22,781 nucleotides of DNA from an uncultured Alphaproteobacteria bacterium (GCA_965371625.1 CBDUZE010000060.1:1-22781); one strand, 5' to 3'; shown: positions 1,764 through 11,691, counted from the first letter of the stretch. Made by a program: numbers and translations. Notes: generated by a model not told the origin, from the letters alone.

Positions 1764-2846
1764 GTGAGCGATGACTCGAACGCCTATCCACCGCCAACGC
1801 CGCGCCGATCGGGCCCTGGTGCCGGGGACGGCGGGTCGATGACCGGCCCCGCCTACCGGCCCCGGCCGCTGCTCCCCACGTCGTCCGTCGGCCTCTCGCC
1901 GGGATTGCGGCGCGGCCCCAGGGCCGGTGTCGGGGGGCGCAAGGACATCCTCTGCGCCTTCGGCATCGACATCGACGCGGTGGCCGGCTGGCTCGGCTCC
2001 TACGGCGGCGAGGACTCGCCCTGCGACATCTCGCGCGGCATGTTCTCGGGCGAGGTCGGCACCCCGCGCCTGGTCAAGCTGTTCGACCGCTTCGGCATCA
2101 AGACCACCTGGTTCATCCCCGGCCACTCCATCGAGACCTTTCCCGAGCAGTGCAAGCTGGTGGTCGACGCCGGCCACGAGATCGGCATGCACGGCTACTC
2201 CCACGAGAACCCCATCGCCATGACGCCGGAGCAGGAAGAGGCGGTGATGGACAAGTGCATCGACCTCATCGAACGGCTCTGCGGTCGCCGCCCCGCCGGC
2301 TACGTCGCCCCGTGGTGGGAGTTCAGCCCGATCACCAACGAGCTGCTGCTGAGGAAGGGCATCAAGTACGACCACAGCCTGATGAACGACGACTTCCACC
2401 CCTTCTACGTGCGCGTCGGCGACAGCTGGACGCCGATCGACTACTCCAAGTCCGCGGACGAGTGGATGAAACCCCTGATACGCGGCCGGGAGACCGACCT
2501 TATCGACATCCCGGGGAGCTGGTACCTCGACGACCTGCCGCCGATGATGTTCATCAAGAGCGCCCCCAACAGCTTCGGCTTCATCAATCCCCACGACATC
2601 GAGGAGCTGTGGCGCGACCAGTTCGACTGGGTCTACCGCGAGTACGACTACGCGGTCTTCACCATGACCATCCACCCCGACGTCTCGGGCCGGCCCCAGG
2701 TCTTGCTGATGCTGGAGCGCATCTTCGAGCACATCAGCGGACACGCCGGCGTGCGCTTCCTAACCTTCGACGAGATCGCCGACGACTTCCGCGAACGTTT
2801 CCCGCGCGACAAGGTCAAGGCGGGAGAGACCAGCGCCGCCGGCTGA
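1764..2846 (+). CDS. Polysaccharide deacetylase / PuuE-allantoinase-like family hydrolase
   Basis: [17 protein letters not shown] ... [15 protein letters not shown] ... [13 protein letters not shown] matches the NodB/PuuE deacetylase fold (HGYxHE). Start is assigned to GTG 1764, preceded by AGGAGG at 1754..1759. The in-frame ATG 1839 is an alternative start. The N-terminal region is low complexity. Confidence 0.7.
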
Positions 2847-2875
2847 GGGCGGTGCGAAGGGGCGAAGGGCCGGAG

Positions 2876-3205
2876 ATGTGCAGCCTGTGCGGGGTGCTCG
2901 GCGGACGCGCCCACTGGAGCGACCGCGCCGGCGCCGCGGATGGCGGCGAGCGCAGCCGCGAGGTCACCCGGCAGCGCGAGCGCCAGTGGCGCACCCGCCT
3001 CGCCAACCAGATCCTCGCGCACTACGGCCTCGCGCTTGCGGACTGGGCCGCGACCTCCTACGTGCTGCGCGGCCGCACCGGGCGCACCGCGCTGGTGGAG
3101 AACCTGAGCGAGCTGTGGCCCGCCGCCGAGGCCCTGGGAAAAAGGCCCTGCGACCCCCTCGACGAGGCCCTGCTCGCCGCCCTCGCGGGGCGCGGTGCCA
3201 AGTGA
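2876..3205 (+). CDS. Small hypothetical protein (109 aa, begins MCSLCGVLGG), immediately upstream of the COG0523 GTPase
   Basis: ATG 2876 follows GGAG at 4-nt spacing, 30 bp after the deacetylase stop. The stop at 3205 lies 13 bp before the COG0523 ATG. I recognise no domain, and high GC makes spurious ORFs common here. Confidence 0.35.
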   Translation: MCSLCGVLGGRAHWSDRAGAADGGERSREVTRQRERQWRTRLANQILAHYGLALADWAATSYVLRGRTGRTALVENLSELWPAAEALGKRPCDPLDEALLAALAGRGAK

Positions 3206-3218
3206 TCCGCCCGCCGCC

Positions 3219-4268
<1,050 letters not shown>

Positions 4269-4484
4269 AACGCGCACTCAGGAAACTCTGATGTTGACTT
4301 GTGCAACCAATGTCCGTCATCAGACGCAAAGCGGATTCTTTGGCCGAGATTGGTTTATATCTGCAATCGAGCCAACTCGGGCCGTGATGATCCATAATCG
4401 CCTTGTGAGGGTGGTACAAAAACCCTAATGATGTTAATGCCACCACTGACCTGAAATTTGATAATATATCACTCGTAGATCGGC

Positions 4485-6050
4485 ATGGGAGAGTTCGCTA
4501 AAATGGGTTTTTCGTCTGAAATTAGAGAGAATGCCCTCGTTAAAGCTGCACGGTGCTGCTGTGTATGTAGACGATTTAGGGGCGTTGGGGTAGAGGTACA
4601 TCACATTGTTCCGGCCTTGGATGGTGGCTCAAGCGATCTTGATAACGCGATTGTCTTGTGTTTCGACTGCCATTGTGCCGCAGGACATTATAATCCCAAA
4701 CACCCAAGAGGGACTAAATATAGCCCCAGAGAACTCCGTAGGCATAGAGATAACTGGTACAGATCCGTTGAAGAAGCAGGCGCTCAGCTGCGCGAGGACG
4801 ATGAATTTTCCGGTTATTACGGGCGGCATTTGATTTGTCTGGACAATGAAGCTGCACGCGATCTTATAGCGGCTAACAAGGACCAAATACCGTTTCGGTA
4901 CGATTACCTCTTAAAGAACGACGTCTTTCGGTTCATGGCCGAGGTTTTAGACGACAATTTGCCTTTTTCTTGGACAGGTTCCGATAATCAACTCGGCCAT
5001 TATAGGGGCAGAGGAGACTACAGTTCCCTGGAAGATTTCCACGATCAACACCCCGAGTTTGAGAAGCAATTCAGCCGTCCACTTACCGCAACAGACATTG
5101 TGGAAGGTGGGCTGGTTCCTTCCAAGATGATGCGTAAGATAGTAGATAACGGATTCCCTCCTTCTGAATTGGGGAAAGTATGCGCGGAAGTGGATGATTG
5201 TGGTGGAGGTGTATCGTATTTTGTTGCGATGCGGCGGCCGCTGTTTGTATTTGCAGAAATAAGGAACACCTCCTCGGAACAGTTTAGATTATCGGGATTA
5301 GTTACTCGAAAGGATAAAGACAGACCCTTTGTTTGTAAATTTGATGACTGGGATGAAGGCAAACTCGCTGCAATCCCATACGGGAATTTGGTATTAAATC
5401 CCGGAGAAGTCCTTCTCATTCCAGAATGTGTTCTGTTGAGCTCTCAAAACCACGACCCGTTAAATACCGAATTCGTGGAAATGGAGGACATGAGTCATGA
5501 ACAAATGCAAGCCGTCGGCTTCCGTACAACCGCCATGAAAGACGACTTCTATCGGTTTGGACCAGCGCTTAAGCTGGAAGGCTTCGATCTCGAAGTTGGC
5601 AACGAGATAAGGAACGTACCCATCCACAGGTTCGATCCTTCGAAATGCTATGTATACTACCGAGCATGGATGTGCGGAAGCTGTCCCCACTTGTACGTTT
5701 TCGACAAACATACCGGATGGAAATATCTGGGCGAGATCCTAGCGAAATCCACTAACAATGGATCGAGAACTGAGAGAGTGTCGATTCCTGAGGGCGTAAC
5801 AAGAATACGTATTGTTGAGACGGACTTCGAAATAACCCATATCGAAAGTATTGACTATAGGGATCAGCAACTAGTCGAGAGGCCCATCCGTTTGCGGCAA
5901 GGTGATTCCCTTGAACTGGAAGTTAATGGTCCAGGCATCCTTTCCGTGATTGGAAGATACCATGCACGAATCATGAGCCCTCGTTGTTACCTTCAATTAC
6001 GCCAGAAACTAAGTTTGCGGAGCGCTTATGAGCACACCGTTCTAGGATAA
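4485..6050 (+). CDS. HNH-nuclease-motif protein (521 aa) with a large C-terminal region I cannot assign
   Basis: N-terminal CCCVCRRF-x8-VHHIVP-x10-DNAIVLCFDCHCAAGH fits the C-x2-C ... HH ... N ... C-x2-C-H HNH signature. A second in-frame ATG at 4503, with GGAGAG upstream, is an alternative start. A -10-like gataat/taatat lies at 4460..4467. Confidence 0.75.
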   Translation: MGEFAKMGFSSEIRENALVKAARCCCVCRRFRGVGVEVHHIVPALDGGSSDLDNAIVLCFDCHCAAGHYNPKHPRGTKYSPRELRRHRDNWYRSVEEAGAQLREDDEFSGYYGRHLICLDNEAARDLIAANKDQIPFRYDYLLKNDVFRFMAEVLDDNLPFSWTGSDNQLGHYRGRGDYSSLEDFHDQHPEFEKQFSRPLTATDIVEGGLVPSKMMRKIVDNGFPPSELGKVCAEVDDCGGGVSYFVAMRRPLFVFAEIRNTSSEQFRLSGLVTRKDKDRPFVCKFDDWDEGKLAAIPYGNLVLNPGEVLLIPECVLLSSQNHDPLNTEFVEMEDMSHEQMQAVGFRTTAMKDDFYRFGPALKLEGFDLEVGNEIRNVPIHRFDPSKCYVYYRAWMCGSCPHLYVFDKHTGWKYLGEILAKSTNNGSRTERVSIPEGVTRIRIVETDFEITHIESIDYRDQQLVERPIRLRQGDSLELEVNGPGILSVIGRYHARIMSPRCYLQLRQKLSLRSAYEHTVLG

Positions 6051-6098
6051 TCCAACCAGGAGAAAGATGAAATAGCAAAGCAGTATTGGGTGATCTGA

Positions 6099-7148
6099 AT
6101 GAGTAACTTCGCGCTCTGCTCCAATTGCTTCCAGGATCAAGGGCTCAAACTTGATGCTCAACAGTTCGGTCTCGTTGAGAGCTCGACTTGTCCAAACTGT
6201 GGTTCGGAAACCGGGCAAAAGTTGAGCTCGGACTTGATCGGGCATCTTGCTCATAGGTATTTCGTTCGAGGAAGCCTTCATCGTTGTGACTACGGCGCTG
6301 CACCAATAATCCAATTTAATGACCGTCAACAGACGAGTATAGATACTTCCCCGTGGTTCGAGTCGGATGTGCGCCTTATCGAAAAGACACTTGGCGTTGG
6401 CTTCTTCTATTATGCACCAAGAATGTGGATGGTTGGCGAAATTGAACCACTAAAAGCATTGATAGAGCCGGAAACCAGGGCCTCAATGATACGCCGTACC
6501 TTAGCAGAATACCCGATCATAACACTGAAAACTGAGCAGGTATTTTACCGCATTCGGAAATCTCCAGCGGATCCGACTGATTTTAGCGAATATGATAGTC
6601 TACCGATTGTTAGGGCAGGCGCCGGTCGACTTGATTCTAAGGGATTTTCTGTAATGTATTGTTCTCAGGATCTGCAAGTTTGTATCCATGAGTGCCGCCT
6701 CACCGCAGAAGACGAACTTTTTCTAGCGACGCTCGCAGCAACGAGAGACCTGCGGCTGCTTGACTTAACTGAGGTGCTTGAGGAAGAGGGTGTAACTGAG
6801 TTCGAGAGCCTTGATATTGCCATTCACATGCTGTTTCTCGCTGGCGATTACTCTTACAACATCACGCGAGAAATTGCCATGGCTGCGCATACAGCAGGAT
6901 ATGATGGACTTGTCTATCCGTCGTACTTCAGTCTTCTACGTACTGGGGGAATACCATTTGAGACGTCGTATCGAATTTCACACCGAATAGTCCCCCGACT
7001 GGCGGAGAGAGAAGGATCAAAGATCATTCCAAATCTCGCTCTATTTGGACGACCGATAGAACAAAATATTGTCAAAGTACGATGCATCAACAAGGTAATC
7101 ATCAATAAAGTTGAATATGGCATCCATTTCGGACCAGTGGGGTACTAG
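6099..7148 (+). CDS. Zinc-ribbon plus RES-domain protein (349 aa); putative NAD+-targeting toxin-type effector
   Basis: N-terminal CSNC-x20-CPNC (Cys4 ribbon). The central region YRIRK ... GRLDSKGFSVMYCSQDLQVCIHE ... YDGLVYPS matches the order and spacing of the Arg/Glu/Ser RES signature. RBS GGTGA sits 5 nt before ATG 6099, 48 bp after the HNH gene stop. Confidence 0.7.
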   Translation: MSNFALCSNCFQDQGLKLDAQQFGLVESSTCPNCGSETGQKLSSDLIGHLAHRYFVRGSLHRCDYGAAPIIQFNDRQQTSIDTSPWFESDVRLIEKTLGVGFFYYAPRMWMVGEIEPLKALIEPETRASMIRRTLAEYPIITLKTEQVFYRIRKSPADPTDFSEYDSLPIVRAGAGRLDSKGFSVMYCSQDLQVCIHECRLTAEDELFLATLAATRDLRLLDLTEVLEEEGVTEFESLDIAIHMLFLAGDYSYNITREIAMAAHTAGYDGLVYPSYFSLLRTGGIPFETSYRISHRIVPRLAEREGSKIIPNLALFGRPIEQNIVKVRCINKVIINKVEYGIHFGPVGY

Positions 7149-7361
7149 CCAACAACTGTACTCTTCGTTTCAGTGAGCAACATTCCGATGCGGCTAGACT
7201 CAACCGTTTCACAAAAGCGCGAAAGTCCCTTCCTTGTTAGGAGCCGTGAATCGAAGGACTACTCGTGTAGGCCCCTTACCGCATGGAAGCGGACATCGGT
7301 GAGGCGTTTTCCAGAGCCGTCGACAAGGCGGTTAGCGGGTGCACGCCCTAGCCCCCGCCCC

Positions 7362-7454
7362 CTACGCCGAGGCCCTGGGCGGCGGCCGCCTGGGCTGCCA
7401 GCCCACCCGGAAGGCCCGCACCACGTGGTGCAGCACGTAAAAGAGGATGGCGAG
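7362..7454 (-). pseudogene. Truncated 3' fragment (last ~30 codons plus TAG) of a paralog of membrane-protein gene 8769..9293; left copy of an imperfect direct repeat
   Basis: The minus-strand translation of 7362..7454 reads LAILFYVLHHVVRAFRVGWQPRRPPPRASA* against ILAILFYLLHHVVRSFRVGWQPRRPPPRSSAGSSD* at the genuine gene end. A 33-nt identical core ggcggcggccgcctgggctgccagcccacccgg is present at both sites. Confidence 0.55.
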
Positions 7455-7582
7455 ATTCCGTGTTCACGATCGAATTCACGGCGTTCAGGTTTTGTACTTG
7501 AAGAGCGAATTGGCACGATTGGGTTCATCGAGTTTACTAAGGGCTACGTTGTTTCATGAGCTTGGGCGAAGGAGGTGCGGCA

Positions 7583-8701
7583 ATGGGCGATGTGAGACCG
7601 ATTCCCGAAGCCATGGCGGCCATGCTCCTGATGGGGCACGGTGGAATCGACAAGTTGGTCTATCGCGACGATGTGCCGGTGCCGAGTCCGGCGGCTGGAG
7701 AGGTCCTGATCGAGGTCACGGCGTGCGGCGTCAACAACACAGACATCTGGGTGCGCGAGGGCGCCTACGGAACCGAAGACGATCCCGACGCCGTATCTTC
7801 CTTTCAGCGAGGCGACACGACCTTGAACTTCCCCCGTATTCAGGGTGCGGACATCGTGGGGCGGATCGCCGTGGTGGGTGCCGGCGTTGCCGAAGGCCGC
7901 ATCGGTGAACGGGTCATGGTCGACTTCAGCATCTACAACCGCGGCGGCGATGGCCTGACCGATATGGACTGCGCCGATATGGATTACATCGGCCACGGGC
8001 GCAACGGCGGCTTTGCCGAGTTCACGACCGTGCCGGCCGACCAGGCCCACGTCGTCGATACCGACATGACGGATATCGAACTGGCCACCTTCTGTTGCGC
8101 CTACATGACCGGCGAACATTTGCTTGAACGCGCCAATGTTCAGGCAGGAGAGCGGGTTCTCGTGACAGGCGCGTCGGGCGGCGTGGGCTCGGGCGCGATC
8201 CAGCTCTGCCGGGCGCGCGGCGCCATTCCCATCGCCCTGACGAGCCGAGACAAGGCGGAGGCGGTCAATTCGATTGGCGCTGAGGCTGTCATCGTGCGTG
8301 GCGAGGGCGATCTGGTCGAAGCGGTGGAGGTCGCCACGGGCGGTGAACCCATGGATGTCGTCATCGATGTCGTGGCAGGCCCTCTGTTCAACGACCTGCT
8401 GCGCGTTCTGCGGCCGGAGGGCCGCTATGCAACGTGCGGAGCGATTGCCGATCCGGTCGTGCAGCTCGACCTCAGGACCGTGTATCTCAAACATTTGCAA
8501 ATCCATGGCTCCTCCCAGGGCACTCGTGCGGCTTTTCAGCGCCTGGTCCGATATATCGAGCAGGGAAAATTGAAGGCTTTGGTGGGCGGCATCTACAAGC
8601 TCTCGGACCTCCACCGAGCGCAGAGCGACTTTAAGGCCAAGCACTTCGTCGGCAAGCTGGTGGTGGTTCCGGACTCGAAATGGGACGAGGCGACAGGCTA
8701 G
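7583..8701 (+). CDS. Zn-dependent alcohol dehydrogenase / quinone oxidoreductase (MDR superfamily)
   Basis: GEVLIEVTACGVNNTDIW ... GADIVGRIAVVGAGV ... VLVTGASGGVGSGAIQL (Rossmann GxGxxG). GGAGG RBS at 7571..7575, 7 nt before ATG 7583. Confidence 0.85.
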   Translation: MGDVRPIPEAMAAMLLMGHGGIDKLVYRDDVPVPSPAAGEVLIEVTACGVNNTDIWVREGAYGTEDDPDAVSSFQRGDTTLNFPRIQGADIVGRIAVVGAGVAEGRIGERVMVDFSIYNRGGDGLTDMDCADMDYIGHGRNGGFAEFTTVPADQAHVVDTDMTDIELATFCCAYMTGEHLLERANVQAGERVLVTGASGGVGSGAIQLCRARGAIPIALTSRDKAEAVNSIGAEAVIVRGEGDLVEAVEVATGGEPMDVVIDVVAGPLFNDLLRVLRPEGRYATCGAIADPVVQLDLRTVYLKHLQIHGSSQGTRAAFQRLVRYIEQGKLKALVGGIYKLSDLHRAQSDFKAKHFVGKLVVVPDSKWDEATG

Positions 8702-8768
8702 GATCACGAACGAAAATGGTCGGGCCAAACCCTGGATGCGACGTCAACGCTCGTGACGGGTGCAGGCC

Positions 8769-9293
8769 CTAATCCGAGCTGCCCGCCGACGACCTGGGCG
8801 GCGGCCGCCTGGGCTGCCAGCCCACCCGGAACGAGCGCACCACGTGGTGCAGCAGGTAGAACAGGATGGCCAGGATCACCAGCACGATGATGGCGAGCAG
8901 CTTGGCGCCGAACACCGGGCCGATGATGGCGCCGCGGTTGATGAGGTGCTCGCCCAGCATCGCCACCGCCTGCAGGGTGGCGCCGGCGGCGAAGATCACG
9001 GCGATCAGGATCGCCACCTGAAGGGTATCGAAGACCAGGCCCTCGGCGTCGAGCTCGCCCGAGCCGCGGAAGATGTTGCGGCGGAAGGACTGCCAATGGG
9101 CGATGGCGTAGCCGATCACGCCGACCAGCGAGGCGAACCAGAAGATCACGTTCGAGAAATGGACCCGGGGGATGCTCGCGCTGACGAAGCTCTCGAAGGG
9201 CTGGTAGAAGTAGAGAAAGATCAGCAGGATGACGACGCCCACCAGGACGATCCAGAATCGCGGTCGCTGCCAGCTTGCCGTGTCTTGCGCCAT
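8769..9293 (-). CDS. Small integral membrane protein (~174 aa, about 4 predicted TM helices); function unknown
   Basis: Hydrophobic stretches FWIVLVGVVILLIFLYF, VIFWFASLVGVIGYAIA, VAILIAVIFAAGATL and LLAIIVLVILAILFYLL. Start assigned to ATG 9293 (MAQDTASW...). The longer upstream ORF extension is Pro/Arg-rich and implausible. Confidence 0.55.
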   Translation of the reverse strand: MAQDTASWQRPRFWIVLVGVVILLIFLYFYQPFESFVSASIPRVHFSNVIFWFASLVGVIGYAIAHWQSFRRNIFRGSGELDAEGLVFDTLQVAILIAVIFAAGATLQAVAMLGEHLINRGAIIGPVFGAKLLAIIVLVILAILFYLLHHVVRSFRVGWQPRRPPPRSSAGSSD

Positions 9294-9442
9294 TGCCTGC
9301 CCGGCCCCTGCGTAATCCGAGGCCCCGGATCGTATACCAAGCCCCGGCAAAAGCAAAAGCGGACGGCGCGCCTGGTCCCCGGCGCCGCGCTCGGGCGCGC
9401 CTGGACCGGGCGTTCGGCGCTTGGCGCCGCGCCCGGAGCGAG

Positions 9443-9471
9443 TTGACCGGACCTTAGGTCTCGGGGATGAT
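9443..9471 (+). promoter_or_regulatory. Candidate sigma70-type promoter for hyuA (-35 TTGACC 9443..9448, 17-nt spacer, -10 GATGAT 9466..9471)
   Basis: Hexamer spacing read directly from the sequence. The -10 is weak. Confidence 0.25.
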
Positions 9472-9624
9472 GGGGCGGCCGGTGTGTGCGCCCGGGTCAC
9501 GGCATGACCCAGGCAGGCTGGCGATCGCATGATTTCTTACCCCGCGTCCGCCGTTGGCGGCGGCGCACCGGTGCCGCGCCCGAGCGCGGCCGGGCGCGGA
9601 AATGGGAGGCTTGAGCAAGGCACC

Positions 9625-11691
9625 ATGGGCGGCCGCCTGGGGATCGATGTCGGTGGCACCTTCACCGACCTGCTGCTGTTCGACGACGCCACCCGTCGTC
9701 TCCACCTGCTGAAGACGCCGTCGACGCCCGAGGACCAGTCGGTCGGCATCCTCGTCGGCATCGAGAAGCTCTTGGCCGAGAGCGGCATCGCGGCCTCGGA
9801 GATCGAGGCCATCCTCCATGGCACCACGGTCTCGACCAACATCGTGCTCGAGGAGAAGGGCGCCAAGGTCGGCCTCCTGGTGACCGAGAACTTCGAGCAG
9901 GTTCTCCACCTCGCGCGCTCGCAGACGCCGGGGCCGCTGGCGGGCTGGATCACCATGATCAAGCCCGACCCGCTGGCCGACCTCGAGCTGACGCGGGGCT
10001 TAGCCGAACGCGTCAACGCCCGCGGCGAGATCGTCACGCCGCTCGACGAGGGCCGCGCCCGGGCCGCGATCCAGGAGCTGGTGGCGGCGGGCGTCGAGTC
10101 GATCACCGTCTCGCTCCTCCACGCCTACGCCAACCCCGCCCACGAGCAGCGCGTCAAGGCCATCATCGAGGACTTGGGCGTCGAGCTGCCGGTCTCGCTG
10201 TCATCCGAGATCCTGCCCGAGTTCCGCGAGTACGAGCGCACGCTGGTTGCGGTGATGAACGCCTACATAGGCCCCAGCATGCGCCGTTACCTGAGCAACT
10301 TCGAGGACAAGCTGCGCGCCATCCAGTTCTCGCCCCACGTCAGCATCGTCCGCTCCGACGGCGGTCTGATGAGCGTCGAGCGGGCTTCCGCGTCGCCGGT
10401 CCACACTATGGTCTCGGGCCCCGCCGGCGGGGTCTCGGGCGCCGCCTTCGTGGCCGCGCTGGCCGGCCACACCGAGGCGCTGGGCTTCGACATGGGCGGC
10501 ACCTCGACCGACGTCTCGATGATCCGCGAGGGCAAGCCGACGATCTCGCGCCAGACCACGCTCGGCTACTACCCGGTCAAGGTGCCTTCCGTTGAGCTCC
10601 ACAGCGTCGGCGCCGGCGGCGGCTCGATCGCCCACGTGCCGATGACCGGGGCGCTGCGCGTCGGGCCCGAGAGCGCCGGCGCGGTGCCCGGGCCGGCGTG
10701 TTACGACCGCGGCGGCGACCGCCCCACGGTGACCGACGCCAACGTCGTCCTGGGCCGCCTGCCGCCCAGCCTGCTCGGCGGCGAGATGGCCTTGAACGTC
10801 AAGGCGGCGGAGGAGGCGGTGGCCAAGATCGGACGCGCCCTCGGCCTCGACACCTACCAGGCCGCGCAGGGCATCCTCGATATCGTGAATGAGAACATGT
10901 TCGGGGCCTTGCGCCTGGTGACGGTGCAGAAGGGCTTCGATCCCCGCGACTTCGCCCTCGTCGCCTTCGGCGGCGCCGGGCCCATGCACGCCAACGCCAT
11001 CGCCATGCTGGCGGGCTGCTATCCGGTGATCGTGCCGCCGACGCCGGGCGTGCTCTCGGCCCTCGGCTTTCTCCATTCCGACGTCAAGAACGAGTTCGCG
11101 CGCACCTTCATCCGCAACCTCGACAGCGTCCAGCCCGGCGAGGTGATCGAGATCCTGACGCGGCTGGGCAGCGAGGCCAAATCCTGGCTTGGCGAAGAGG
11201 GCATCGAGAGCGGGCGCCAGCAGCTCCACTACGAGGCCGACGTGCGTTACTTCCGCCAGGGCTACGAGTTCGCCCTCGAGGTCACGCCCGAGGCCTTGAG
11301 CAACGGCGGGATGGGCGACCTCGAGGACCGCTTCGGCGTCATCCACGAGCGCCTCTACGGCTTCAGGCTGGAGGCCCCGGTGGAGCTGGTGAACCTGCGC
11401 GCCGTCGGCATCGGTCAGGTGGTGAAGGTCGAGTTCCCCAAGTTCGAGCTCGACGGCGCGGATGCCTCGGGCGCGGTGGTCGAGCAGCACCGGGTCTACT
11501 TCGACGGCAACTTCGCTCCCGTCAACATTTACGACCGCGAGCGCCTCGCCGCGGGCAACCGGATCTTAGGTCCGGCGGTGATCACGCAGAAGGACTCGAC
11601 GACCGTGATCCATCCCGGCCACGTCGGCGACGTCGACCCCTACCTCAACATCCTGATCCACCCGGAGGGCACGCCCCCCGGGGCACGGTGA
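9625..11691 (+). CDS. hyuA: Hydantoinase/oxoprolinase A subunit (N-methylhydantoinase A / 5-oxoprolinase family)
   Basis: Begins MGGRLGIDVGGTFTDLLLFD (the Hydantoinase_A N-terminal signature), with homology across the whole ORF. ATG at 9625. Confidence 0.9.
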   Translation: MGGRLGIDVGGTFTDLLLFDDATRRLHLLKTPSTPEDQSVGILVGIEKLLAESGIAASEIEAILHGTTVSTNIVLEEKGAKVGLLVTENFEQVLHLARSQTPGPLAGWITMIKPDPLADLELTRGLAERVNARGEIVTPLDEGRARAAIQELVAAGVESITVSLLHAYANPAHEQRVKAIIEDLGVELPVSLSSEILPEFREYERTLVAVMNAYIGPSMRRYLSNFEDKLRAIQFSPHVSIVRSDGGLMSVERASASPVHTMVSGPAGGVSGAAFVAALAGHTEALGFDMGGTSTDVSMIREGKPTISRQTTLGYYPVKVPSVELHSVGAGGGSIAHVPMTGALRVGPESAGAVPGPACYDRGGDRPTVTDANVVLGRLPPSLLGGEMALNVKAAEEAVAKIGRALGLDTYQAAQGILDIVNENMFGALRLVTVQKGFDPRDFALVAFGGAGPMHANAIAMLAGCYPVIVPPTPGVLSALGFLHSDVKNEFARTFIRNLDSVQPGEVIEILTRLGSEAKSWLGEEGIESGRQQLHYEADVRYFRQGYEFALEVTPEALSNGGMGDLEDRFGVIHERLYGFRLEAPVELVNLRAVGIGQVVKVEFPKFELDGADASGAVVEQHRVYFDGNFAPVNIYDRERLAAGNRILGPAVITQKDSTTVIHPGHVGDVDPYLNILIHPEGTPPGAR

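Follow-up and report, generated by a model that had tools for sequence, protein, structure and literature searches.

The HNH, Mrr, REase and PNP domains rank among those exchanged most often between defence systems (10.1101/2025.09.30.679545), and in short-Argonaute systems DUF4365 and HNH are alternative effectors (PMC10810196). Stand-alone two-domain RES proteins (aRES) in defence islands protect against phage (10.64898/2026.01.28.702374). A stretch of 22,781 nucleotides from an uncultured Alphaproteobacteria bacterium (GCA_965371625.1 CBDUZE010000060.1:1-22781; hereafter the window) contains a gene whose predicted product begins with an HNH nuclease module and continues into a long C-terminal module (C-module), followed on the same strand by a gene for a RES protein (Table 1). 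Sequence comparison and structure prediction identify the C-module as a genuine and widespread family, folded with confidence and conserved as a unit, and it is found joined to several different N-terminal domains, which makes the protein a candidate for an immune sensor with an exchangeable effector. Literature searches yielded no description of the HNH and C-module architecture.

The HNH nuclease module

The Pfam family HNH (PF01844) matches residues 25-65 of the protein with 32.2 bits against a cut-off of 21.4, and the module was found to have the ββα-metal fold. In a 34-sequence alignment of the family, the zinc site CxxC...CxxC (C25, C28, C59, C62) is invariant, as are H39, H40, N54, D61 and H63. 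Because both the zinc cysteines and the catalytic residues are invariant, the nuclease looks catalytically competent, and by sequence and fold the domain is a complete one of the McrA/Cap5-like kind. A preliminary description of the locus had confined the HNH motif to the first ~70 residues of a 521-residue protein; the HNH assignment stands, but the conserved N-terminal module extends further, to about residue 100, through an AGHYNxxHPxG motif and then a long helix. This module is basic (pI 8.6), with a mean pairwise identity of 60% across the family.

The best structural match of the HNH domain is Cap5, which aligns over only ~107 residues in a search with the full model and does not figure among the top 60 matches when the C-module is searched alone. 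These two results together place the Cap5 match in the HNH part of the protein.

The C-terminal module

Residues ~100-521 gave no match in Pfam, NCBIfam or PADLOC, and PDB sequences compared with the single protein and with a profile of the C-module returned HNH matches or noise only, so that the preliminary description was right to say of the remainder, put there at ~450 residues and here at ~415, that it matches nothing recognised. By profile and fold it is neither a restriction specificity domain nor another member of the curated libraries; SAVED, SRA/PUA and APAZ were likewise considered as identities of the C-module and rejected, none being among the fold or profile matches. Foldseek comparison with viral structures gave TM scores of 0.15 or less.

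The module is nonetheless predicted to fold with confidence. AlphaFold2, supplied with the family alignment, modelled the full protein with a predicted local distance difference test score (pLDDT) of 87.5 and a predicted template modelling score (pTM) of 0.79, and the C-module alone with values of 89.5 and 0.88. In the predicted layout, a hinge of low confidence (residues 100-104) links the HNH domain and its helix (1-100) to the C-module, in which an α/β domain (~105-235) precedes an all-β region of β-sandwiches (~236-500); the chain ends in a basic helix (502-520).

All three parts of the C-module are acidic across the family, with a median pI of 4.7-5.2 and a net charge of −6 to −8, and mean pairwise identity is 24%, against 60% for HNH. 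Against this divergent background, a small set of residues is invariant or nearly so: R114, C239, R250, N261, H381, R393, W395-x2-G-S-C400-P-H402, E445-x3-E449 and G490-x-Y492. We infer that C239, R250, N261, W395-x2-GSCPH and E445-x3-E449 form one pocket or metal site.

Family size, spread and domain exchange

A word-indexed protein search, which sets a lower bound on the number of full-length relatives, returned at least 158 of them, 500-550 residues long, nearly all with an HNH domain in front and bearing no name beyond “hypothetical protein” or “HNH endonuclease”. A profile of the C-region (residues 105-521), run in an exhaustive search of 1.84 billion cluster representatives (50% identity), matched 918, 438 and 294 of them at E ≤ 1e-3, 1e-10 and 1e-30, respectively; in most of the 150 matches listed, the C-region starts at about residue 100. 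With so many full-length homologues and hundreds of C-region representatives, the open reading frame (ORF) in the window is, on comparative grounds, a real gene and not a chance ORF. Relatives occur in Alpha-, Beta- and Gammaproteobacteria, Desulfovibrionia, Myxococcota, Bacteroidota, Nitrospirota, Gemmatimonadota, Clostridia, Planctomycetota, Chloroflexota, Zixibacteria and one Aenigmatarchaeote.

The C-module is not tied to one N-terminus. Where the N-terminus has been swapped, the module starts at a conserved R-Y-L-V-C and retains every invariant residue, including the C-G-x-G, GSCPH and E-x3-E motifs, and the full W-x2-GSCPH signature is kept in variants with Mrr-like, DUF4365, PNP and helical N-termini. 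The swapped forms comprise a DUF4365 fusion (P0352, E 9e-13); Mrr/PD-(D/E)XK-like fusions with a D-G-I-D...Y-Q-C-K motif, one from the isolate Rubrivirga litoralis (P0351, Mrr_cat E 0.004) and a faint one (P0304); a PNP_UDP_1 fusion (P0328/L091, 31.6 bits against a cut-off of 25.1); a different type of HNH, recognised by motif only (P0347); and a helical domain of ~170 residues in four clusters (P0344, P0346, P0353, P0354). The converse is also found, the HNH module of ~100 residues (50-63% identity) being joined to several other unannotated C-termini in proteins of 190-370 residues.

Swapping of this kind would be expected if one fixed sensing or regulatory module drove an interchangeable toxic effector. 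The joining of the C-module to interchangeable effector-type N-termini, and its much faster evolution in comparison with the HNH module, make sensing or regulation the best-supported role. The preliminary description had suggested “a phage-sensing or target-recognition domain”: a sensing role gains from these data, but recognition of a DNA target is disfavoured, the module being acidic and having no known DNA-binding or modification-reading fold.

Individual members of the family show further features. The PNP_UDP_1 and C-module coding region in L091 (4624-6545) is continuous in the DNA and split over three reading frames, which would be explained either by a pseudogene or by insertion and deletion errors in a long-read assembly; a Macro-domain gene lies ~1.5 kb downstream on the opposite strand (8114-8539). 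An identical short HNH-module protein is encoded at two distant sites of one cyanobacterial chromosome (L053/L054, JAVYJL010000001.1), with related copies in other cyanobacteria (L055-L057), and may ride a repeated mobile element. Interrupted or shortened forms make up 5 of the 52 genomic homologues: two have no intact ORF (L025, L045), two are split (L051 into 307 + 288 residues, L058 into 351 + 157) and one has 367 residues (L041). Such broken copies are consistent with rapid gain and loss, or with assembly errors in metagenome-assembled genomes.

Genomic neighbourhoods of the family

Genes within three positions of the HNH-C-module gene were surveyed at ~50 full-length genomic loci, and no conserved partner family was found among them. 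Pfam families counted over the two neighbours on either side (150 neighbours) were led by RES (4), Mrr_cat (4) and HTH_3 (3), and PADLOC identified GajB, dGTPase, OloB, PifA, components of type I, II and IIG restriction-modification (R-M) systems, DrmMI and RT-protease. In the subclade of the window's own protein (L087-L090, 52-56% identity), RES is absent and the neighbours are GmrSD, Dcm with Vsr, type I R-M, IS1595 and GIY-YIG/NYN. The G+C content (GC) of the gene lies more than 3 points below that of its flanks in 33 of 49 loci, which reads as a signature of horizontal transfer. The gene is free-standing and chromosomal, outside introns, inteins and phages, and neither the 50,697 phage records nor the 72,556 plasmid records searched contained a match to the C-module.

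A family of related proteins of ~285-325 residues adjoins the HNH-C-module gene in L012, L032, L039 and L042; it is probably the source of the four Mrr_cat matches. In L037 (2720-7542), a row of four conflict-type genes on one strand encodes a PF18870 + RES protein of the aRES type, HNH_2, DUF3800 and the HNH-C-module homologue.

A proposed mechanism

The explanation that we favour, and to which we give slightly more credence than to its negation, is that the protein is a single-gene sensor-effector defence nuclease and that the window holds two adjacent, independent single-gene defence modules. The N-terminal ~100 residues, by sequence and fold a catalytically complete HNH DNase of the McrA/Cap5 type, are tethered by a helix to the acidic module of ~415 residues, which would keep the nuclease inactive until an infection cue is detected. 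Since no immunity or antitoxin gene is adjacent, the nuclease would have to regulate itself. The cue would probably act through the putative pocket or metal site formed by the invariant residues, and the activated HNH domain would cut DNA, either that of the invader or, as abortive infection, that of the cell. The gene would need no partner and would be horizontally mobile, serving against phages or mobile elements, and together with the neighbouring RES NAD+ phosphorylase it would make up a two-gene mini defence island.

In favour of this explanation are the intact HNH domain, the confident fold and wide spread of the C-module, the exchange of partners on both sides, the difference in evolutionary rate, the defence-type genes among neighbours that include no conserved partner, and the low GC of the gene. 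Several observations weigh against it. Many of the neighbours surveyed are ordinary housekeeping genes, and PADLOC-DB v2.0.0 gives only weak, HNH-level matches, to mREase_IV (E 8.8e-4) and DpdF (E ~1e-3). The PNP and DUF4365 fusions are one observation each, and the PNP fusion is frameshifted. The conserved core pocket could equally signify an enzymatic function and not sensing. Finally, the placement of the HNH domain relative to the C-module is uncertain in the model, whose pTM is 0.79 for the full protein as against 0.88 for the C-module alone, with a pLDDT below 50 in the linker at 100-104; autoinhibition is for this reason a conjecture.

Were the favoured explanation correct, the family would be an uncharacterised single-gene immune family that comprises ~300-900 clusters (50% identity) from numerous bacterial phyla and from one archaeon or more, and its sensing module, absent from Pfam, NCBIfam, PADLOC and PDB, would represent a new sensor fold for bacterial immunity. 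It would also provide a compact HNH nuclease that a trigger could switch on, and a clean model of effector shuffling (HNH, Mrr, DUF4365, PNP) onto one sensor.

The RES neighbour

In the RES protein encoded downstream, the RES NAD+ phosphorylase domain occupies residues 149-276 (DNA 6543-6926), and the N-terminal 148 residues contain a zinc-ribbon-like CxxC...CxxC region whose cysteines (C7, C10, C31, C34) are invariant in its family. With at least 1,646 homologues, and at least 59% identity across the 120 matches listed, this family greatly exceeds that of the HNH protein both in size and in conservation. PF18870 (HEPN/RES N-terminal domain 1), which the definition of aRES requires at an HHsearch probability above 80%, gave no hmmscan match in the window RES at E ≤ 1, and in an hhalign comparison of the RES family profile with the PF18870-type RES of L037 only the catalytic core aligned (residues 143-228, 95% probability). 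The window RES thus appears aRES-like in architecture and behaviour, formal aRES membership not being supported, and long solitary RES proteins with a zinc-ribbon N-terminus may constitute a distinct aRES-like class. A domain common to the RES N-terminus and the C-module was considered and rejected (hhalign probability 1.2%).

A RES gene lies within three genes of the HNH-C-module gene in ~7 of 57 loci. RES of the window type follows the HNH gene in L001, L086 and L035 and precedes it with one gene between (RES-X-HNH) in L015 and L038, while the RES three genes away in L037 is of the other, PF18870 + RES, type. Same-strand gaps between the two genes are 48 nucleotides in the window, 0 in L001 and 21 in L086. 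The RES-linked loci are scattered across the HNH tree and, viewed from the RES side, all four homologues sampled on long contigs have neither an HNH neighbour nor a common partner. On co-occurrence and scatter an obligate HNH-RES pair is rejected, and the dedicated pairing implied in the preliminary description is not supported. That description had also doubted a classic type II toxin-antitoxin (TA) pair, correctly: the gene upstream of RES encodes a 521-residue HNH protein with no helix-turn-helix, no Xre antitoxin is present, and the pairing is not conserved. A RES-Xre pair is rejected on the same grounds. The recurrent, non-obligate adjacency makes synergy between two single-gene systems directly testable.

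Two of the RES-linked loci have additional features. L086, the closest HNH-RES pair to that of the window after L001 (HNH 60%, RES 67% identity), carries the pair as terminal cargo of an integrative element (2156-10538) with an integrase, an AlpA-like helix-turn-helix protein, a DnaG zinc ribbon and a primase/AAA_25 protein, resembling a P4-like satellite. In L015, a 657-residue DUF4365 + TPR protein (1946-3919) is encoded immediately upstream of the RES-X-HNH array; in P0352, a DUF4365 domain takes the place of HNH.

Alternative explanations

The main rival, which we regard as unlikely, is a type IV modification-dependent restriction enzyme, whose C-module would recognise foreign DNA by a modification of its bases or backbone and guide the McrA-like HNH domain to cleave it; the host's own DNA would be free of the modification, which would make an immunity gene superfluous. 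A single gene with no partner, the McrA-like HNH domain and the weak mREase_IV match all suit such an enzyme, as do neighbours that often belong to R-M or type IV systems (Mrr_cat in 4 loci, GmrSD, Dcm with Vsr, type I R-M), and exchange of HNH for PD-(D/E)XK is also typical of modification-dependent enzymes (PMC6765204). The acidity of all three C-module sub-regions is, however, unusual for a domain that reads DNA, no recognisable reader domain or fold (SRA, PUA/EVE/YTH, McrA N-terminal domain, sulfur-binding domain) was found, and the same module is joined to PNP nucleoside-phosphorylase-type and helical domains, neither of which acts on DNA. The order of the parts argues in the same direction, since the non-SRA fusions that PMC6765204 screened have their reader at the N-terminus and their nuclease at the C-terminus, the opposite of the arrangement here.

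We see only a slender chance that HNH and RES form one two-gene system, either through TA-like restraint or with RES making ADP-ribose-1''-phosphate (ADPR-1''P) from NAD+, the C-module sensing this product and the HNH nuclease being switched on. RES enzymes do produce ADPR-1''P (10.64898/2026.01.28.702374) and are counted as signal-generating enzymes (PMC9503650), Cap5, the best structural match of the HNH domain, is a ligand-gated HNH effector, tight same-strand arrays recur, and the association, far above chance for two rare families, appears in several separate HNH lineages. Yet ~85-90% of HNH-C-module loci, including the sister group L087-L090, have no RES, and the four RES genes on long contigs have no HNH neighbour. 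The disparity in size and conservation between the two families also speaks against one system, as do the lack of an Xre-type antitoxin and the ability of stand-alone RES proteins to defend alone (10.64898/2026.01.28.702374). In a variant that we consider very improbable, the C-module would be an unrecognised immune sensor binding a nucleotide-derived ligand in the C239/W-x2-GSCPH/E-x3-E pocket, and in the RES-linked subset RES would make that ligand, ADPR-1''P or a derivative, on infection, giving two-gene NAD+-derived signalling like that of Thoeris or of CBASS with Cap5. Homing and repair nucleases are common among HNH proteins, and some loci of the family are flanked by housekeeping genes only; a selfish or housekeeping enzyme (homing, DNA repair or competence) with a structural or substrate-binding C-terminal part is nevertheless just as improbable, given the absence of phage and plasmid matches, a location outside introns, inteins and phages, the patchy, island-like, low-GC distribution and the split or decayed copies. 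Effector swapping would also be unexpected for a housekeeping enzyme.

The gene and its low-GC island

The longest ORF of the HNH gene probably overstates its 5' end. Homologues in the family alignment begin at the equivalent of M7, with an “M-x-F-S” start, and GGGAGA precedes the ATG at 4503; these two features make that ATG, which would give a protein of 515 residues, the likelier start than 4485.

The HNH and RES genes have GC contents of 47.3% and 47.1%, compared with 67.7% for the rest of the window. According to Pfam, the island that they form is bordered on one side by a CobW-type GTPase gene (3195-4268) and on the other by a GC-rich relic and a Zn-dependent alcohol dehydrogenase (Zn-ADH) gene, the remainder of the window being housekeeping in character (isochorismatase, deacetylase, CobW, Zn-ADH, hydantoinase A/B, SPFH and ABC transporter). 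Promoter-like matches in the region, including the one listed in Table 1, are no more numerous than in shuffled sequence, and no terminator-like site was found between the HNH and RES genes.

A search for island borders of the tRNA/att type found no tRNA, and the sole repeat is a 90-nucleotide pair that flanks the Zn-ADH gene and not the island. The two direct copies (7365-7454 and 8784-8873, 90% identity) bracket the Zn-ADH gene at 7556-8701. The right copy forms the 3' end of a membrane-protein gene (8769-9530, minus strand); the left copy is the GC-rich relic, which lies directly against the right border of the HNH-RES island. This arrangement suggests that the site is a hot spot for insertion at which acquisitions followed one another.

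Table 1. Features of the HNH-C-module locus (window coordinates; residues numbered from the 521-residue ORF, except in the RES row)
Feature	Position	Strand	Remarks
HNH + C-module gene	4485..6050	+	longest ORF, 521 residues; motifs quoted in the preliminary description present
N-terminal HNH (ββα-metal) module, residues 7-100	4503..4784	+	zinc site, catalytic residues, AGHYNxxHPxG, linker helix 81-98
C-terminal module, residues 105-521	4797..6047	+	acidic, fast-evolving; predicted α/β, all-β and basic terminal helix
Codon of near-invariant C239 (C-G-x-G loop)	5199..5201	+	97% conserved; kept in variants with other N-termini
Signature W395-x2-G398-S399-C400-P401-H402	5667..5690	+	C400 and P401 invariant, others 94-97% conserved
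Invariant E445-x3-E449 (“A-E-L-E-x-E-x-T” strand)	5817..5831	+	E-x3-E kept behind other N-termini
Stand-alone “long” RES protein, 349 residues	6099..7148	+	Pfam RES PF08808, 54.7 bits
Low-GC two-gene island, ~3 kb	4270..7300	.	from composition profiles
Sigma-70-like promoter match ATGCCA-17-GATAAT	4437..4465	+	5' of the HNH gene; weak

Comparison with known systems

The β-sandwiches of the ApaG/DUF525 type (ApaG 1xvs/2f1e, FBXO3, PDIP38) match a quarter of the C-module at 13-18% identity, and the resemblance, which comes from the model, is a generic fold likeness and no evidence of homology or common function. The window RES shares with aRES proteins its size (349 residues, against 300-600), its two domains, its RES core, its solitary occurrence in most genomes and its lack of a fixed operon partner; it differs in having a zinc-ribbon-type N-terminus, probably in place of PF18870, the domain that defines aRES. 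It differs from RES-Xre TA pairs in having no Xre antitoxin.

The McrA-family type IV enzymes (EcoKMcrA 6ghc, TagI 6ghs, ScoMcrA 5zmm) and the PUA/EVE/SRA-HNH proteins (PMC6765204) differ from the window protein, which has no recognisable reader, an acidic non-HNH part and an N-terminal nuclease. The difference from Cap5, the HNH-SAVED effector of CBASS (7rwk, 7rwm, 8fm1), lies in the C-terminal part, which Pfam, PADLOC and fold searches agree is not SAVED; moreover, CD-NTase is absent from the 25 neighbour Pfam families listed for the ~50 loci. A parallel in design exists with single-chain or modular immune proteins, namely the NLR-like Avs/bNACHT proteins and, in short-Argonaute systems (SPARHA/SPARDA; PMC10810196, PMC12738770), the effector-APAZ partners, in which, as in the C-module family, a constant sensing or regulatory part is combined with swappable effectors of the HNH, DUF4365, Mrr and PNP types. 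From SPARHA and SPARDA the family is set apart by having neither an APAZ fold nor an adjacent short prokaryotic Argonaute gene.

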